A stretch of 64,000 nucleotides of DNA from an uncultured delta proteobacterium (GTDB taxonomy: Bacteria; Desulfobacterota; Zymogenia; Zymogenales; Zymogenaceae). The position numbers and the translations under genes were made by a program. The notes beneath the pieces were generated by a model. It was not told the DNA's origin. It saw only the letters and a list, made by a program, of their open reading frames with translations, and did not search any database. The stretch lies in the NCBI GenBank assembly GCA_963792965.1, contig CAWBYW010000007.1:160001-224000 (forward strand). Reading direction: 5' to 3'. Position 1 is the first letter of the stretch, and each line of letters begins with the position of its first letter. This document shows positions 16,101-22,780 of the stretch, piece after piece.

Positions 16101-17555
16101 ATGCCTCTCATGACCCCACAAGAATACGAAAAGAGTCTCAGAAAGCTTAAATTGGTTGTCTATATGTTCGGAAAACGCCTTGATAACGTCGTAGACGACC
16201 CGATCATACGCCCTTCAATGAATGCGGTGGCCCTCACCTATGAGCTTTCACATCGCCCTGAATACGAACAGCTCCTGACGACCACATCCCATATTTCCGG
16301 CAACAAGATCAGCCGGTTTACCCACGTCCATCAAAGCATGGATGACTTAGTCAAGAAGAGCAAAATGGGAAGACTCCTCGGATCGTTGACCGGGTGCTGT
16401 TTTCAGCGCTGCGTCGGGATGGATGCGCTCAACGCCCTCTCTATCACAACTTACAATATGGATAAGAAAAACGGCACCGAGTACCACGGGCGGTTTCTGA
16501 AATACCTTCGTTACGTCCAGGACAACGACCTCGTATGCGACGGCGCCATGACCGACCCGAAAGGGGACCGCTCCCTTTCGCCGCACGAGCAGAGTGACCC
16601 CGACCTCTACCTGAGGGTGGTCAAGGAAACCAAAGAAGGGATTATCGTGCGGGGGGCCAAGGCACATCAGACGGGCGCGGTCAATTCACATGAGATCATC
16701 GTGATGCCGACGGTCTCGATGCGCCAGGAGGACAAGGCGTGGGCCGTTTCGTTCGCCCTGCCGAGCGACACGGAAGGGATCATCTATATCATGGGCAGGC
16801 AGTCGTGCGACACGCGCAAGGTCGAGGCGGGGACGATCGACCGGGGTAACCAGTGCTTCGGCGGGCACGAGGCGCTCGTCGTCTTTGACGACGTCTTCGT
16901 TCCGTGGGACAGGGTATTCATGTGTGGCGAGTATGATTATTCTGGCGAGCTTGTGGAAAAGTTCGCGTCATACCACCGCCAGAGCTACGCCTGCAAGGTC
17001 GGTGTGGGGGACGTCCTCATCGGTGCAACCCAGACGATCGCCGAACAGAACAACATTGCCAGGGCTTCTCACGTTCGTGATAAGATCATCGAAATGAATC
17101 ACCTCAACGAAACGCTCTACTGCGGCTGCATAGCCTGCGCGGCCGAGGGGCACCGCGAGCCTTCCGGCACCTATGCCGTCGATACCCTCCTTGCCAACGT
17201 GCACAAGCAGAACGTCACACGGTTCCCCTACGAGATCGCGCGGCTGGCGCAGGACATCGCCGGAGGTATACTCGTCACCCTCCCGTCGGAGGAGGACTTC
17301 CGGTCAGAAGAGGCGGGCAAATGGGTAAATAAATACCTCAAGGCCGACTCCTCGGTCCCGACGGAAGATCGAATGCGGATGCTGCGCCTCGTGGAGAACC
17401 TCACGATGGGGTCGGCGGCGGTCGGCTACCTCGTTGAGTCCATGCACGGGGCCGGATCCCCGCAGGCGCAGCGCATCATGATTTCCCGGGAGGTCAACAT
17501 GAAAGAAAAACAGCGCAACGCACGGCGCCTGGCGGGGATTGCTGACGAGTCATGA
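16101..17555 (+). CDS. abfD: 4-hydroxybutyryl-CoA dehydratase/vinylacetyl-CoA isomerase
   Basis: CFQRCVGMDA, GAMTDPKGDRS, GAKAHQTG, HRQSYACK, ESMHGAGSPQAQ. Confidence 0.93.
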   Translation: MPLMTPQEYEKSLRKLKLVVYMFGKRLDNVVDDPIIRPSMNAVALTYELSHRPEYEQLLTTTSHISGNKISRFTHVHQSMDDLVKKSKMGRLLGSLTGCCFQRCVGMDALNALSITTYNMDKKNGTEYHGRFLKYLRYVQDNDLVCDGAMTDPKGDRSLSPHEQSDPDLYLRVVKETKEGIIVRGAKAHQTGAVNSHEIIVMPTVSMRQEDKAWAVSFALPSDTEGIIYIMGRQSCDTRKVEAGTIDRGNQCFGGHEALVVFDDVFVPWDRVFMCGEYDYSGELVEKFASYHRQSYACKVGVGDVLIGATQTIAEQNNIARASHVRDKIIEMNHLNETLYCGCIACAAEGHREPSGTYAVDTLLANVHKQNVTRFPYEIARLAQDIAGGILVTLPSEEDFRSEEAGKWVNKYLKADSSVPTEDRMRMLRLVENLTMGSAAVGYLVESMHGAGSPQAQRIMISREVNMKEKQRNARRLAGIADES

Positions 17556-17759: not shown

Positions 17760-19511
17760 CTATCGTTGAGGCAGACTTGAACCCCTCTTTACGTAGTGGG
17801 TATGGAGGAGCTCATGAGACTTATGTCCGAGGGGCTCCTTGAGGAACGTGTCATAAATCTCCTTGATTGCCGGGTTCTCGTGCGACTGGCGGTACGTTTG
17901 GACGGATGCGTCGTCTTTATACAGCGCGCCGGAACGTAACGTTCGTATCTCGTTTGTCGTCGGGATCGGCTCGCCGCCGCCGGCGATGCAGCCTCCGGGG
18001 CAGGCCATTATCTCGATGAAGTGGTAGTCGGCCTTTCCTGCGCGGATCTTGTCCATCAGCTTTCGGGCGTTGCCCAAGCCGTGCGCTACGGCGACCTTGA
18101 CGTCTCCGAGCGCGCCGACCGCAACTGTCGCCTCTTTCACCCCTTCAAGGCCGCGGACCGGTGTGATGTTGAGATCCTTCAGATTTTCGCCGGTTACCAC
18201 GGCGTAGACCGTGCGCAGGGCGGCCTCCATGACGCCGCCGGTAGCACCGAAAATGGTGCCTGCGCCGGTGTACTGCCCCATGGGGGCGTCGTACTCGTCG
18301 TCCTTCAGCGCGTTAAAATCGACGCCGGACTCCTTGATCATCCGTGCCAGCTCCCTGGTCGTGAGGACATAGTCGACGTCGCGGTAGCCACTGGCGTTCA
18401 TCTCGGGCCGCTGTGCCTCGAATTTCTTAGCGGTGCAGGGCATAATGGATACCACCACGATATCCTTGGGATCGATCCCTGAGGTCTGGGCATAATAGGT
18501 CTTGGCAAGGGCGCCGAACATCTGCTGGGGCGACTTGCAGCTTGACAGATTGTCCAGGAGATCGGGATAGTTATGTTCGCAGAACTTGATCCATCCGGGG
18601 CTGCAGGAGGTGATCATGGGGAGGGTCCCGCCCGTCTTTACTCGCTTGAGGAGCTCGTTTCCTTCTTCGATAATCGTCAGGTCGGCGGTGAAATTGGTGT
18701 CAAAGACCCGGTCAAATCCGATTCTCCTCAGGGCCGCGATCATCTTACCGGTCACAAGGGTGCCGGGAGGCATGCCGAATTCTTCACCGAGGGCGGCCCG
18801 AATGGCCGGGGCTTCCTGAACGACCACGTGCTTTGTCGGATCCTGAAGGACCTTCCATACTTCCTGTACGTAATCCTTCTCATAAAGGGCGCCGACGGGG
18901 CAGGCCATGACGCACTGACCGCAATTGATGCAGGTGGTTTCGGCCAGAGGGAGGTCGAACGCGGGAACAACGCTTACCTTGCTTCCTCGCCACGCGGGTC
19001 CAAGAACGTTGACGGTCTGAACTGATTGACATACCGTCACGCAGCGGTGACAGTTGATGCACTTGCGGCTGTCGCGGACGATGGAGGGACTCGATTCGTC
19101 CAGCATCCCTTCCTTGGGAACGGAAGAGTTACGGAACCGTACGTCTTTGACCCCCACATGCTCGGCGACCCTCTGGAGCTCGCAATTACCGTTCCTGACG
19201 CAAAAATTGCATTCGGCCGGATGACTCGAAAGCAAAAGCTCGACGACCAGCCTGCGAGCGGTTCGTACGCGTTCGGTATTCGTTTGAATTACCATACCGT
19301 CGGTAACGGGGTGGACGCACGCCGCCACGAGGTTCTTCAGGCCCGAGACTTCGGATACACAGACGCGGCACGCACCGGGAGTATGGCCGATCTCTTGCCA
19401 GGCGCAGAGGGTCGGTATTGTGATACCGGCTTTCTTCGCAGCGTTGAGTATCGTGGTTCCCTTTTCCACTTGGACATCGATGTCGTCAATCGTCACCTGT
19501 ACCAGAGACAT
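17760..19511 (-). CDS. hydA: Group A [FeFe]-hydrogenase catalytic subunit (2Fe-2S, His-ligated 4Fe-4S, 2x4Fe-4S, H-cluster)
   Basis: TSCSPGW, MPCTAKKFE, EIMACPGGCIAGGG; start MSLVQV after AAGGAGG. Confidence 0.95.
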   Translation of the reverse strand: MSLVQVTIDDIDVQVEKGTTILNAAKKAGITIPTLCAWQEIGHTPGACRVCVSEVSGLKNLVAACVHPVTDGMVIQTNTERVRTARRLVVELLLSSHPAECNFCVRNGNCELQRVAEHVGVKDVRFRNSSVPKEGMLDESSPSIVRDSRKCINCHRCVTVCQSVQTVNVLGPAWRGSKVSVVPAFDLPLAETTCINCGQCVMACPVGALYEKDYVQEVWKVLQDPTKHVVVQEAPAIRAALGEEFGMPPGTLVTGKMIAALRRIGFDRVFDTNFTADLTIIEEGNELLKRVKTGGTLPMITSCSPGWIKFCEHNYPDLLDNLSSCKSPQQMFGALAKTYYAQTSGIDPKDIVVVSIMPCTAKKFEAQRPEMNASGYRDVDYVLTTRELARMIKESGVDFNALKDDEYDAPMGQYTGAGTIFGATGGVMEAALRTVYAVVTGENLKDLNITPVRGLEGVKEATVAVGALGDVKVAVAHGLGNARKLMDKIRAGKADYHFIEIMACPGGCIAGGGEPIPTTNEIRTLRSGALYKDDASVQTYRQSHENPAIKEIYDTFLKEPLGHKSHELLHTHYVKRGSSLPQR

Positions 19512-19630
19512 CCTTTTCCTCCTTAGGCAAGATGGGCCGCCCGGGGCGCGTGGCGCGGCCGGGCGGTACTCAGCATCCTTCACGCAGTCGCCGCACGGGC
19601 GACACGGGATCGTGATTGGATTAACGTTTC

Positions 19631-19718: not shown

Positions 19719-21329
19719 TCAACTGCCCTTGGTGAAGGTTCTCAAGAAGAGCTTGGTCGTCTTCAGGCTCCCGACGAGCTTTTTCGCGATATTTCGGGAA
19801 TAGAGGAAGTCGATCGTCCCCTTGATCCCGTCGTAGACCGATTTGCTCTGCGGATACCACCACATGTTCTTCTGGACGCCCGGAAGGTAGTCGTGGACGA
19901 TGCAGAGGGGCTCGGTCATCTCGTTGAAGCCGAGCTCTCCGTGGGTTCGGCCGATCCCGGATTCCTTAAAGCCGCCCCAAGGCGTCTCCGCCAGCCCGTT
20001 GCTCATCATGTGGTCGTTGATCATGACGACCCCGGCCTGGATACGCCGCGCGAGCGATTCGGCTTCTTTCCGGTTCTTCGACCAGACCGATGCGGTCAGC
20101 CCAAGGTTCGAGTCGTTGGCAAGCTTGACGGCCTCCTCCATGTCGTTTACCTTCATGACCCCGACCACCGGGCCGAAGGTCTCCTCACGCATGACAAGCA
20201 TGGAATGGTCAACGTTGGTGAGGACCATTGCGGGAAGGAAATTCCCGTTCGATTTCTTCGGACATCCCGACTCGGCGGCGATCTTGGCCCCCTTTTTGAC
20301 GGCGTCGTCAAGGTGCCTCTTGACCGTCTCCACCTGCTGGGTCGTCGTCATCGCGCCGATGTCGACGCAAAAATCGGTATCATGGCCGACCCGAATCGAC
20401 TTGACCTGATCGACCAGGAGCTTGAGAAACGGATCATACACGTCCTTATGCACGTAGATACGCTCGACCGCGGCGCAGGTCTGGCCGGTATTGGAGAGCC
20501 CCGCCCATACTGCGCCCGTCGCCGCCCGGTAGAGGTTGGCGTCGGGACAGACCAGCATCGGGTCGTTCCCCCCGAGCTCCAGCGAGACCGGCGTGAGGGT
20601 CTGGGCCGCCTTCGCCATCAGTTCCTTTCCAACGGCTGTGCTCCCGGTGAAGAAAAGCTTGTCGATGCCGGCGGCAAAGAAGGCCTCGCCCGCCTTCCTG
20701 CCAGGAAGGTTAAGATGGGTAAACAGGCCGTCCGGGAGGTCGGCCGCGGCGACGCAGCGCTCGATGGCGCTCCCCACCAGCTGGGTCTCGGTGGCGACCT
20801 TCAGGATGACGGCGTTTCCCGCCATAAGCGCCATTACGATCTCGGCAAAGGGGATCCCGAAGGGATAGTTCCAGGGGGAGATGATCCCGATGACGCCGAA
20901 CGGGACGCGAATGATCTTGCTCCGCTTATAGGCCATTAACAAGTTTGCCGGCGGGAGCGGCTTGTCCTTGAGGAAGCGGGGCGCTTTCTTCGCGAAAAAA
21001 TCGATGTTCATGGCCGTGCCGAAGACCTCGGACACCAGTGCATCGGTCCGGGTCTTGCCGTTGTCTTGACTGATGATCAACGCCAATTCGTCGGCATGCT
21101 CCACGACGTAGTCTCTGATCTTCAGCATCGCCCGGGTGCGCTCCTTTACCGGGGTGGCGGCCCAAAGGGGTTGGACCTTCCGGGCCTTCTTTACCGCGGC
21201 AACCACGTCCTCGGGACTATTCAGGGTAACGGTACCCAGCTCTTCACCGGTTGCGGGGTTCTTTGAAACGACGTGGCGAGCGTTTTCCTTAGCTTTTTGG
21301 TCTTTCGCAAGAGGTATCTGGCTCATCAT
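19719..21329 (-). CDS. NAD(P)-dependent aldehyde dehydrogenase (succinate-semialdehyde dehydrogenase-like)
   Basis: ISPWNYP, FTGSTAVG, LELGGNDP, GQTC, EETFGPV, PWGGFKESGIG. Confidence 0.93.
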   Translation of the reverse strand: MMSQIPLAKDQKAKENARHVVSKNPATGEELGTVTLNSPEDVVAAVKKARKVQPLWAATPVKERTRAMLKIRDYVVEHADELALIISQDNGKTRTDALVSEVFGTAMNIDFFAKKAPRFLKDKPLPPANLLMAYKRSKIIRVPFGVIGIISPWNYPFGIPFAEIVMALMAGNAVILKVATETQLVGSAIERCVAAADLPDGLFTHLNLPGRKAGEAFFAAGIDKLFFTGSTAVGKELMAKAAQTLTPVSLELGGNDPMLVCPDANLYRAATGAVWAGLSNTGQTCAAVERIYVHKDVYDPFLKLLVDQVKSIRVGHDTDFCVDIGAMTTTQQVETVKRHLDDAVKKGAKIAAESGCPKKSNGNFLPAMVLTNVDHSMLVMREETFGPVVGVMKVNDMEEAVKLANDSNLGLTASVWSKNRKEAESLARRIQAGVVMINDHMMSNGLAETPWGGFKESGIGRTHGELGFNEMTEPLCIVHDYLPGVQKNMWWYPQSKSVYDGIKGTIDFLYSRNIAKKLVGSLKTTKLFLRTFTKGS

Positions 21330-21590
21330 ATACTCCTTCTGAATCTTACTTGTTATTCACATTGATAAGGAAGTATGCCGATGTCGTGACCGACACCGAC
21401 ACGACAACAGTAATCCCCGGCTCTTTGAGGTAAGAGAACACCTTTAAAGATTCGTTGGAGCCGTGTATTGGCCTGCGCCGAAGAGGCGCATGCTCTGCTG
21501 TTTCGAGAGTCGGCCCGCAGAAGGACGAACTACTCCACCGAATCTTTCAAACGATCCAGGACCGGAAGACTACCGCGCAGGATCTTTGTT

Positions 21591-21698
21591 TCACGAAAAT
21601 CTCATGAAAGGTCCCGGTAGTCCGCGGGGAGGCGGAAAGTAGTTTTTGAGTGGACAGTTAAGGCGACAGTTCAGTCGATAGGCAGGCTTCGACACCAT
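21591..21698 (-). CDS. Micro-ORF 2, 35 aa (MVSKPAYRLNCRLNCPLKNYFPPPRGLPGPFMRFS)
   Basis: ATG directly after the AAGGAGG that forms the 3' strand of riboswitch 2. Confidence 0.5.
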   Translation of the reverse strand: MVSKPAYRLNCRLNCPLKNYFPPPRGLPGPFMRFS

Positions 21699-21704
21699 GT
21701 GTTT

Positions 21705-21826
21705 CCTCCTTTCCAAACACGGGAGGCGCGGCCGTTTCCAACCGAACCTTATCGGCCGGTCACCATAGACGGGCTCTTCCATTATGGTTCTGGCGCCCAA
21801 TCCACAGGTGATGCGGCTCGGAGGTT
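21705..21826 (-). promoter_or_regulatory. Moco/Tuco-class riboswitch, copy 2
   Basis: Minus strand CCTCCGAGCC..P2..TAAGGT-CGGTTG GAAA CGGCCG-GCCTCCCGTGTTTGGAAAGGAGG, matching the Moco RNA motif 3' signature. Confidence 0.9.
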
Positions 21827-21828
21827 GT

Positions 21829-21852
21829 AAAAATGCCGAATAGAATCCGGCA
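21829..21852 (-). terminator. Terminator-like hairpin between micro-ORF 1 and riboswitch 2
   Basis: TGCCGGA-ttcta-TTCGGCA followed by TTTTT on the minus strand. Confidence 0.55.
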
Positions 21853-21873
21853 ACCCATTTTATAAGTGCAGCT

Positions 21874-22017
21874 TCACGCTGCGGCGAGACGACATTCTTC
21901 AAGAAAGGAGGCAATTATCTTTCCGGACTGCCGGCAATGGAGACGAAATAGGAAGCGGGAAGGGGCCGAAGCTCCGGGTGGGACGCACTGCGTCGCTTTT
22001 GGGCGCACAAATACCAT
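21874..22017 (-). CDS. Micro-ORF 1, 47 aa (MVFVRPKATQCVPPGASAPSRFLFRLHCRQSGKIIASFLEECRLAAA)
   Basis: ATG directly after the AAGGAGG of riboswitch 1. Confidence 0.5.
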   Translation of the reverse strand: MVFVRPKATQCVPPGASAPSRFLFRLHCRQSGKIIASFLEECRLAAA

Positions 22018-22022
22018 CCTAT

Positions 22023-22140
22023 CCTCCTTTCCAAACACGGGAGGCGTGGCCGTTTCCAGCCAAACCCTAACGGCCGGCTGCCATAGACGAGCCCGACTAT
22101 CGGTTGGGCTCCTGTCCACAGGCAGTGAGGCTCGGAGAAT
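22023..22140 (-). promoter_or_regulatory. Moco/Tuco-class riboswitch, copy 1
   Basis: Minus strand CTCCGAGCC..P2..TAGGGT-TGGCTG GAAA CGGCCA-GCCTCCCGTGTTTGGAAAGGAG; covaries with copy 2. Confidence 0.9.
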
Positions 22141-22147
22141 TCTTCGT

Positions 22148-22176
22148 AGTATGGGTGATATGCTGAGTTTTGTCAA
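22148..22176 (-). promoter_or_regulatory. Sigma70-type promoter immediately upstream of riboswitch 1
   Basis: TTGACA-N17-CATACT. Confidence 0.75.
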
Positions 22177-22214
22177 CAGAATTCCAGTTGGCCAGCCGCG
22201 CAGGCGTGGAGTTG

Positions 22215-22256
22215 AAAAACGGCCGCCCAAAGGACGCGATCTTTGAGGCGGCCGTC
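22215..22256 (-). terminator. Terminator downstream of mop
   Basis: ACGGCCGCC..GGCGGCCGT stem followed by a T-tract on the minus strand. Confidence 0.7.
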
Positions 22257-22276
22257 CGGTCATAGGATGATGGCAG

Positions 22277-22486
22277 CTATTCCGTCGCGATCATGACATT
22301 TGAGGCTTTGATGACGGCATATACCTCTTTGCCTTCGGACAGTTTCAGGCTCTCGACGGACGTCTTAGTGATTATGGAGACTATCTGAACGCCTCCGGCA
22401 AGCTCGACAACGACTTCGGAGTTTACCGCCCCCTGTACTATCTTCTTTACCTTTCCCTTGAGAACGTTGCGCGCACTGATTTTCAT
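22277..22486 (-). CDS. mop: Molbindin (Mop/TOBE) molybdate/tungstate-binding protein
   Basis: MKISARNVLKGKV..SIITKTSVESLKL..AVIKASNVMI, 69 aa. Confidence 0.95.
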   Translation of the reverse strand: MKISARNVLKGKVKKIVQGAVNSEVVVELAGGVQIVSIITKTSVESLKLSEGKEVYAVIKASNVMIATE

Positions 22487-22780
22487 TATTTTACTCCTGT
22501 AATCCCGTTATTACTATTGATGCGTCTCGGTACAAAAAGATGCGGGCACCACGCTCGAGCGCGGGCGCAAGTCCGTTGTCTTGCCGCATCCTCCAGGACG
22601 TCAGACGATTTGATTCCACACCTAATCAAGATACCGGCCGGCGAGACCGGAACCTCAAAACACGCACTCTTACCTTGACGACCCACCCCGTGATTGATAT
22701 GGTATTAATATCCATGATAGGTTTAGAGATATTCGTTCGGATGTAGTGGTATTCGCCTTATGCAAAAGGATGACACGATA

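Follow-up and report, generated by a model that had tools for sequence, protein, structure and literature searches.

Tandem P3-less Moco/Tuco riboswitch aptamers precede an aldehyde dehydrogenase gene in Candidatus Zymogenaceae

Two aptamers in series upstream of an aldehyde dehydrogenase gene

The sequence analysed here is a 64,000 nt stretch of contig CAWBYW010000007.1 from an uncultured member of Candidatus Zymogenaceae, referred to below as the window. Coordinates are positions in the window, and all features of the leader and of the putative operon downstream of it lie on the minus strand. At 21591–22176, two RNAs of the molybdenum cofactor/tungsten cofactor (Moco/Tuco) riboswitch family (Rfam RF01055), each opening into a short upstream open reading frame (uORF), are arranged in tandem upstream of genes for an aldehyde dehydrogenase (ALDH) and an [FeFe] hydrogenase.

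When the whole window was searched with cmscan and RF01055, two matches to the full length of the model (positions 1–135) exceeded the gathering score of 36 bits, in the number and on the strand predicted by an initial annotation made from the sequence alone. Aptamer 1 lies at 22008–22149 (69.4 bits, E 1.1e-14) and aptamer 2 at 21690–21835 (60.8 bits, E 3.8e-12). The columns of the paired region P3 are deleted in both alignments, which also bear out the compensatory differences between the two copies in P2 and P4 that had been noted earlier. The length of about 120 nt given then was too short, as the Rfam envelopes span 142–146 nt. Because P3 is missing from all 12 of the Zymogenaceae aptamers displayed in alignments (the two in the window and 10 others), its absence is not peculiar to the window pair. 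An RNAalifold consensus of 11 leader aptamers (the window pair, eight aptamers of relatives and one on a metagenome contig) contained P1, P2, P4 and P5 with 33 pairs, nine of which keep pairing through two-sided changes. Both copies have GGAAAC loops. The receptor for the GAAA tetraloop of P4 is presumably the CCUAAG/UAUGG motif in P2; the UAUGG half is present, and the other half reads CCUGUG against CCUAAG in the model consensus.

The genome from which the window comes contains four copies of RF01055, namely the window pair, one before a gene for a TupA-like tungstate-binding protein and one before a gene for an aldehyde ferredoxin oxidoreductase (AOR). It also has four AOR genes (AFOR_N), the TupA-like binding protein, two molybdopterin-oxidoreductase genes and a rho gene. 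With P3 absent and tungsten-cofactor genes in the host genome, both aptamers fall in the P3-less ('Tuco') subclass.

In each unit, a Shine–Dalgarno (SD) sequence lies within the 3' strand of P1, with a short ORF directly behind it whose ATG follows the SD by 5–6 nt. The GGAGG in P1 of aptamer 1 is at 22027–22023 and the ATG of uORF1 (47 aa, 21874–22017) comes 5 nt after it, while the ATG of uORF2 (35 aa, 21591–21698) comes 6 nt after the GGAGG of aptamer 2. The two complete aptamers are 314 nt apart. A sigma-70-like promoter sequence (TTGACA-N17-CATACT, 22148–22176, 10 of 12 matches) precedes the first and is the sole such site between the upstream gene mop and the ALDH gene; no promoter belonging to unit 2 was found by the sigma-70-like scan or by eye. 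The scan of 21200–22700 returned this one site against a mean of 0.9 in shuffled sequences, so it is not above chance by itself. Between the two units is a terminator-like hairpin with a U-tract (21829–21852; 8 pairs, a loop of 3, then TTTTT), which is preceded by an A-tract and reaches the 5' end of aptamer 2. The promoter, both ORFs behind their SDs, this hairpin and mop with a terminator-like hairpin of its own had all been annotated initially, and all are present. Judged by sequence and predicted structure, we conclude that both aptamers are genuine P3-less members of the Moco/Tuco family and that they follow one another behind a single recognisable promoter.

The end of uORF2 is separated by a spacer of 261 nt (21330–21590) from the start of a gene for a 536 aa NAD(P)-type ALDH (19719–21329; Pfam Aldedh, 463 bits). 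The nearest NCBIfam model, succinic semialdehyde dehydrogenase, scores 450 bits, under its cut-off of 521. Between aptamer 2 and this gene, there is no other gene in the ORF list and no other promoter-like site in the sigma-70 scan. Starting 135 nt past the ALDH gene is a gene for a 607 aa [FeFe] hydrogenase (17760–19583) that matches the NCBIfam model for NADH-dependent [FeFe] hydrogenase, group A6, with 920 bits (cut-off 765) and is probably the second gene of the same operon. The window pair is thus not located upstream of genes for Mo/W transport, cofactor synthesis or cofactor-using enzymes; what lies downstream are the two uORFs, an Aldedh enzyme and an [FeFe] hydrogenase. The view that the aptamers control only micro-ORFs, as a stand-alone module, had to be abandoned, since the next gene on the same strand is that for the ALDH, followed by the hydrogenase gene, and since the association of aptamer and ALDH gene recurs in relatives, as follows.

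The aptamer–ALDH arrangement is conserved in the family

In the searched set, the order to which the window belongs consists of a single family with 10 species genomes. ALDH orthologues (66–74% identity, E <= 1e-100) were found in seven of the 10, including the genome of the window, and the ALDH query had no match in G001 or G008 (completeness 94 and 88). A single P3-less aptamer was present in the same orientation, approximately 280–340 nt before the ALDH orthologue, in all six relatives that have upstream DNA on the contig (G002, G003, G004, G005, G007 and G009), which represent three genera other than that of the window. In G005, the ALDH orthologue that follows the aptamer and uORF is distributed over three reading frames (138, 190 and 110 aa; C1:154400–158700) and could be a pseudogene or reflect an assembly error. 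The ALDH match in G007 begins only at residue 57. In G006, the ALDH gene opens one contig, and an aptamer is found on another, 720 nt from one end of it. A metagenome contig (L050) with a 64%-identical ALDH has the identical aptamer–ALDH layout, and the hydrogenase orthologue follows the ALDH gene in G002 as well. The link between aptamer and ALDH gene is therefore conserved over four genera of one family, and was not found beyond the family with the searches made.

A deletion scar was also considered, in which case relatives might carry full-length mod, tup, moa or aor genes after each aptamer. No such relative was found. The explanation was rejected, given that uORF2 is itself conserved and that a full-length gene occupies its position in none of the relatives.

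The spacer upstream of the ALDH gene is poorly conserved between genera. It contains a terminator-like hairpin (21375–21402, 12 pairs) approximately 45 nt before the ALDH start, with a tail, ACUUCCUUAU, that could pair with the ALDH Shine–Dalgarno sequence. Sequestration of the ALDH ribosome-binding site by this hairpin, which was spotted by eye in the window, was dropped as an explanation because the hairpin is not conserved in another genus of the family, g3.

Relationship between the two units

The core of aptamer 2 is 86.5–88.5% identical to the ALDH leaders of genus g3 and only 75% identical to aptamer 1. Aptamer 1 in turn shares 75–81% identity with all other aptamers and has no close orthologue. 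Thus, while the initial annotation was right that there are two such RNAs, they are not recent duplicates of one another, and a recent tandem duplication was rejected. Aptamer 2 together with uORF2 is orthologous to the g3 leader. In the g3 leaders, a clear TTGACA/-10 pair precedes the aptamer, and the same place in the window is occupied by unit 1 and the inter-unit hairpin. We therefore take unit 2 to be the original leader of the ALDH gene; unit 1 is a further switch, added upstream of it, that carries the sole recognisable promoter.

uORF2 ends in a conserved polyproline motif

Five g3 loci have a 24 aa ORF behind the aptamer, at equal spacing, that ends in K-x-[Y/C]-F-P-P-P-I-stop. Four of these precede an ALDH gene, and the fifth precedes a gene for a NuoG-like protein with NiFe-hydrogenase subunits. 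uORF2 shares with them the start M-x-S-K/R-x-A and the K-N-Y-F-P-P-P (codons at 21647–21627), which in the window is followed by 11 further codons. All six loci retain the start, the reading frame and the K-x-Y-F-P-P-P end, and all five third codon positions of Y-F-P-P-P vary among them. Within Y-F-P-P-P, the variable columns number 0, 1 and 5 at codon positions 1, 2 and 3, respectively (P approximately 0.018 for at least five of six at one given position, calculated by hand), a pattern that favours selection on the peptide over selection on RNA pairing. Conservation is limited to the first six or so codons and the last seven before or at the stop; the part between them and the total length (24 versus 35 aa) vary.

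When the genomes of 185,579 species, with that of the window left out, were scanned for an aptamer 3' end followed after 55–75 nt by F-P-P codons, 38 hits were returned. Five had the aptamer signature and an in-frame ORF, and these were the g3 loci; the remaining 33 were chance matches. No homologue of uORF2 was found among 1.84 billion representative proteins, in which ORFs so short are seldom called, and neither micro-ORF had a Pfam hit. uORF2 is probably a pausing leader peptide.

uORF1 and a putative anti-Shine–Dalgarno element

uORF1 is C-rich and G-poor. Over the uORF regions, C accounts for 35–41% and G for 17–23% of positions, versus approximately 28% and 27% for the window strand, and this composition, together with the rho gene in the genome, fits predicted loading of Rho on an untranslated leader.

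Five DNA sequencing runs shared small fractions (0.05–0.11) of the sampled words of the query. Among contigs from four of them, the divergence of uORF1 could be followed in one low-depth contig of 269 nt, approximately 91% identical, that covers 21833–22101; no contig covers uORF2, and four of the 25 differences could not be located. In the uORF1 body, 18 substitutions are distributed 5/6/7 over the three codon positions and three are synonymous versus 4.8 expected at random. The frame is open in this contig, which is expected by chance in 59% of simulations. In the part of the contig with located differences, aptamer 1 differs at two of 53 nt and the uORF1 body at 18 of 133 nt (P=0.066; the unlocated differences take this to 0.18 or 0.62 in the worst case).

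Within uORF1 is a putative anti-SD element, CCUCCUUUCU (21902–21911), that is complementary to GGAAAGGAGG at the 3' end of both aptamers. It pairs with the SD strand of unit 1 (SD1) in the unconstrained minimum free energy fold and with that of unit 2 (SD2) when P1 of aptamer 1 is forced, and the two pairings are nearly equal in energy (-171.8 versus -171.0 kcal/mol). The core of the element is unchanged in the approximately 91%-identical contig. An element that resembles it, CCUUUCC, is found after the type-1 ALDH aptamers of G004, G003 and L050. ALDH leaders that lack a uORF also share a hairpin, TCAATGA...TCATTGA in L021 and L023 and TCGGTGA...TCATCGA in L050, whose pairing survives changes in both arms. 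Behind it come a second hairpin and the CCUUUCC, which is complementary to the aptamer 3' strand. The arrangement looks like a conserved expression platform. In the constrained folds of the window leader, no regulated antiterminator competing with the hairpin at 21852 was found.

Other Moco/Tuco leaders of the family

In the genome of the window, the tupA leader (L003 1501–1813; C7:364629 onward) contains a P3-less aptamer and a 42 aa uORF that begins 6 nt after the 3' motif AAAGGAGA, contains A-P-P-P-I-P and ends in a TGA that overlaps the tupA ATG as ATGA. In genus g3, uORFs of 42 codons are present in three complete tupA leaders and in a further one truncated where its contig ends, and the three complete ones share the 4 nt ATGA overlap. 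The encoded peptides differ among the 42-codon loci, even to the point of internal frame changes. Two further tupA leaders have uORFs of 36 and 20 codons with no overlap. What is conserved in the tupA leaders therefore appears to be translation through the leader.

The AOR leaders are built differently. There, the 3' strand of P1 is also the 5' arm of a terminator, both in the genome of the window (L004 1612–1450, minus strand) and in a tandem pair in G004, and cofactor binding should therefore prevent termination and turn expression on. The G004 pair (G004:C49; L030 688–1040) consists of two 112 nt P3-less aptamers before an AOR gene, each with a strong terminator, and would be of the terminator ON type, unlike the window pair. 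From these architectures, we infer that the cofactor would turn AOR on, and tupA and the ALDH operon off.

Further P3-less aptamers lie directly before genes for the small and large subunits of NiFe hydrogenases (L022 in G003:C39 and L032 in G004:C76), and another precedes a gene for a NuoG-like protein followed by NiFe hydrogenase subunits (L017 in G009:C4). Hydrogenases do not use the Mo/W cofactor, and the aptamer-linked ones may be alternatives to W/Mo formate dehydrogenases for electron disposal.

A proposed tungsten-sparing switch

The interpretation that we favour, with a probability of roughly 0.6, is that 21591–22176 is the leader of an ALDH–[FeFe] hydrogenase operon in which tandem P3-less switches turn expression off via a uORF relay, and that the operon follows a tungsten-sparing logic. 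Because the SD of each uORF lies in the 3' strand of P1, each unit would be an OFF switch: binding of the cofactor, presumably Tuco, would close P1, sequester the SD and stop translation of the uORF. The uORFs would then be relays and not products. When the cofactor is scarce, ribosomes on the uORFs would cover the C-rich, G-poor leader, and transcription and translation would proceed into the ALDH gene. When the uORFs are silent, the naked leader would be terminated by Rho or at the hairpins, or the ribosome-binding sites downstream would be sequestered. Two switches in series would sharpen the response. The operon would provide a tungsten-free route of aldehyde oxidation that is off for as long as the four tungsten-dependent AORs can work.

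A uORF relay agrees with the SD in the P1 3' strand, the frame and end of uORF2 conserved in six loci, and the tupA uORFs that, in four complete loci, have 42 codons and the ATGA overlap. The role of uORF1 would be confined to being translated or to carrying the anti-SD. Termination–reinitiation, as the means of coupling to the ALDH gene, can be ruled out because more than 220 nt separate the end of the uORF from that gene. Coupling may instead run via translation and Rho, via an RNA-only anti-SD relay, or via both.

Several observations weigh against this interpretation. The inter-unit hairpin (21852–21829) forms in all four folds, constrained and unconstrained, and were it an efficient terminator, transcription from the single recognisable promoter would reach neither aptamer 2 nor the ALDH gene. 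The 261 nt spacer, which is unconserved between genera, could hide a promoter that the sigma-70 scan missed. Type-1 ALDH leaders in G004, G003 and L050 have no ORF behind the SD, and a uORF is therefore not required for ALDH control. The coding signature of uORF2 comes from six loci in two genera only, and the CCNCC of its PPP codons is also an anti-SD-like string. uORF1 appears to be under no peptide constraint, and no homologues of it were found among proteins of 25–83 aa, where ORFs so short are rarely called. Pairing of SD1 with the anti-SD, predicted in the free fold, would also silence uORF1 when no ligand is bound. Finally, the association is lineage-restricted. There was no RF01055 match within 1.5 kb of any of five more distant ALDH orthologues from the phylum (55–61% identity). 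Among 80 metagenome ALDH loci, most of them with distant ALDHs and some without upstream DNA, the aptamer signature was present in one, that with the 64%-identical ALDH; the locus with the closest ALDH (72%) begins at the gene.

Alternative explanations

The micro-ORFs could be incidental, with the aptamers, the anti-SD and the hairpins doing the work. In the absence of ligand, the 3' strand of aptamer 1 would hold the anti-SD; with ligand, the freed anti-SD would sequester the SD and 3' strand of unit 2 or a ribosome-binding site downstream, and the hairpin at 21852 would attenuate. The near-equal energies of the two anti-SD pairings are consistent with this, as are the CCUUUCC and covarying hairpin behind the uORF-less aptamers of G004, G003 and L050 and the evolution of uORF1 as unconstrained sequence. 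The Tuco switches of Eubacterium limosum have also been described, in passages of the report on them, as having sequesters and anti-sequesters of the ribosome-binding site (PMC11725836). SD1 and SD2 are, however, the same in sequence, so the predicted cross-pairing arises by construction. Nor would such a relay explain why Y-F-P-P-P varies almost only at third positions, why the start and frame of uORF2 are conserved, or why 42 aa uORFs of differing sequence end exactly on the tupA start in four complete loci. We consider it improbable that the RNA elements act alone.

It also seems doubtful to us, and to a similar degree, that unit 2 alone regulates the ALDH gene. Unit 1 would then be a short transcription unit of its own, for example an mRNA for the 47 aa peptide, a small RNA or sponge that responds to the cofactor, or a cassette left stranded, which comes near to the idea in the initial annotation. 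The hairpin and U-tract that, with an A-tract before them, close unit 1 in every predicted fold would suit such a unit, as would the lack of a close orthologue of aptamer 1. However, unit 2 would then be left with no recognisable promoter, at the place where its g3 orthologues have a clear one, and uORF1 has neither a homologue nor peptide constraint. The lower divergence of aptamer 1 than of the uORF1 body hints that the aptamer is maintained, weakly so given P=0.066 and a single low-depth contig, and terminators after the first switches belong to a published serial riboswitch design, according to the main text of the paper concerned (PMC2408646). It is very improbable that the micro-ORFs encode functional small proteins, such as cofactor or metal chaperones or signalling peptides, that are themselves the regulated products. 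Both have good SD–ATG spacing and the end of uORF2 shows constraint at the peptide level, but conservation at the ends of uORF2 with a variable middle and length points to a nascent-chain or pausing role and not to a folded product. There were no Pfam hits and no homologues in two very large protein sets, with the caveat on short ORFs given above, and the arrangement was found nowhere but in the family. Positive support was found neither for this option nor for the RNA cofactor sponge, both of which had been put forward in the initial annotation.

The uORF relay and the anti-SD element might also be combined in a wider scheme, which is speculative and, taken as a whole, unlikely. A Tuco riboswitch would gate a conserved polyproline arrest peptide, K-N-Y-F-P-P-P, and so integrate cofactor status with the capacity for translation and elongation factor P (EF-P), while the upstream switch would cross-talk with it through the shared anti-SD. 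Across Candidatus Zymogenaceae, this would form a tungsten-sparing programme in which the cofactor turns AOR on and tungstate uptake, the NAD-dependent aldehyde-to-hydrogen module and several hydrogenases off. Translation of PPP needs EF-P. In the mgtA and mgtCBR leaders of Salmonella, an ion-sensing leader RNA is combined with uORFs containing proline codons, and coupling is EF-P-dependent. The window leader would resemble these, though it is not homologous, in that a leader sensing a metabolite or ion contains a short ORF rich in proline, and transcription downstream is decided by translation of that ORF or by pausing on it.

Comparison with known systems

Tandem Moco RNAs were described by Regulski et al. 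in 2008 in Syntrophomonas wolfei and Geobacter metallireducens (PMC2408646). According to the main text of that paper, they include a triple array of P3-less RNAs in which a putative terminator follows each of the first two units and the first ORF begins only after a long gap, an array that was read as a more digital switch. The terminators and long gap match the architecture of the window. Thus, of the proposal in the initial annotation that this is an undescribed module, the option of a two-step attenuator comes close to our conclusion, whereas tandem and triple P3-less RNAs are not new. The window aptamers share P1, P2, P4 with a GAAA loop, P5 and the conserved 3' core with the P3-less subclass as presented there, an SD inside the P1 3' strand with the Escherichia coli moaA RNA, and a host with tungsten enzymes and transporters with the subclass in general (PMC2408646). 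That the ligand of P3-less RNAs is Tuco was inferred in the same paper, whose text ties these RNAs 'almost exclusively' to molybdopterin synthesis or Tuco-using enzymes. In contrast, the NAD-type ALDH and the [FeFe] hydrogenase downstream of the window pair use neither cofactor. The tandem RNAs in the main text of PMC2408646 control molybdopterin synthesis and molybdate/tungstate transport, whereas the window pair would control a cofactor-independent catabolic module; unlike them, each window unit opens into a uORF, that of unit 2 being conserved. In that main text, 'hydrogenase' does not occur and 'aldehyde' occurs once, in the title of a reference.

In E. limosum, some P3-less RF01055 RNAs precede genes for WOR/AOR and TupABC and others precede genes for Fe transporters and FocA, which have no use for the cofactor; translational and terminator platforms are mixed, and some targets rise under W limitation (PNAS 2024, PMC11725836, passages on the regulon). 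The window pair is alike in standing before genes that do not use the cofactor; unlike the window, those passages of PMC11725836 include no ALDH or hydrogenase target, tandem units or uORFs. A parallel to the proposed relay comes from Mycobacterium tuberculosis, in which B12 riboswitches act through uORFs as translational OFF switches (Kipkorir et al. 2024, PMC11260477). As described in parts of that article, the uORF uPPE2 encodes a polyproline stretch at its C terminus, and its stop overlaps the following start as AUGA, which is the overlap seen in the tupA leaders of the family, and metE, as a cofactor-independent isozyme, parallels the logic proposed here for the ALDH. Unlike in M. tuberculosis (PMC11260477), the ligand and fold are different and the window uORF ends more than 220 nt before the ALDH gene.

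No report of a Moco riboswitch in an ALDH or hydrogenase context was found in the literature, as covered by main texts outside subscription journals and without supplements. What is new here is the set of regulated genes, the apparent ON/OFF split between AOR and a tungsten-free substitute, and the conserved K-N-Y-F-P-P-P uORF. If the proposal is correct, a Moco/Tuco riboswitch would do more than provide feedback on cofactor supply, in that, in this family of uncultured anaerobes, it would pick between tungsten-dependent and tungsten-free ways of oxidising aldehydes and disposing of electrons, just as B12 riboswitches select between enzymes with and without a need for B12. It would also provide a further natural case of a riboswitch acting via a conserved uORF, and a testable handle on trace-metal scarcity in syntrophic and fermentative anaerobes.

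Surrounding genes

The gene upstream of the leader, mop (22277–22486), encodes a 69 aa TOBE/molbindin protein (Pfam TOBE, 66 bits; NCBIfam Mop domain, 89.9 bits, cut-off 55). The terminator-like hairpin that follows it has a GC-rich stem and then TTTTT; read from the sequence it extends over 22215–22253, and the scan gives its inner part, 22236–22224. Adjacency to mop was not seen in either of the two relatives in which the upstream gene was read: in L007, that gene is unrelated to mop and on the opposite strand, and in L050, the upstream frame, which was not scanned against families, differs.

On the other side of the operon, a gene for an HpaB/4-hydroxybutyryl-CoA dehydratase family protein (16101–17555, plus strand; Pfam HpaB_N and HpaB) is convergent with the hydrogenase gene. 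Together with the below-cut-off match of the ALDH to succinic semialdehyde dehydrogenase, it gives a hint of metabolism involving 4-hydroxybutyrate or succinate semialdehyde. At 2143–2390 on the plus strand, there are three clustered tRNA genes.

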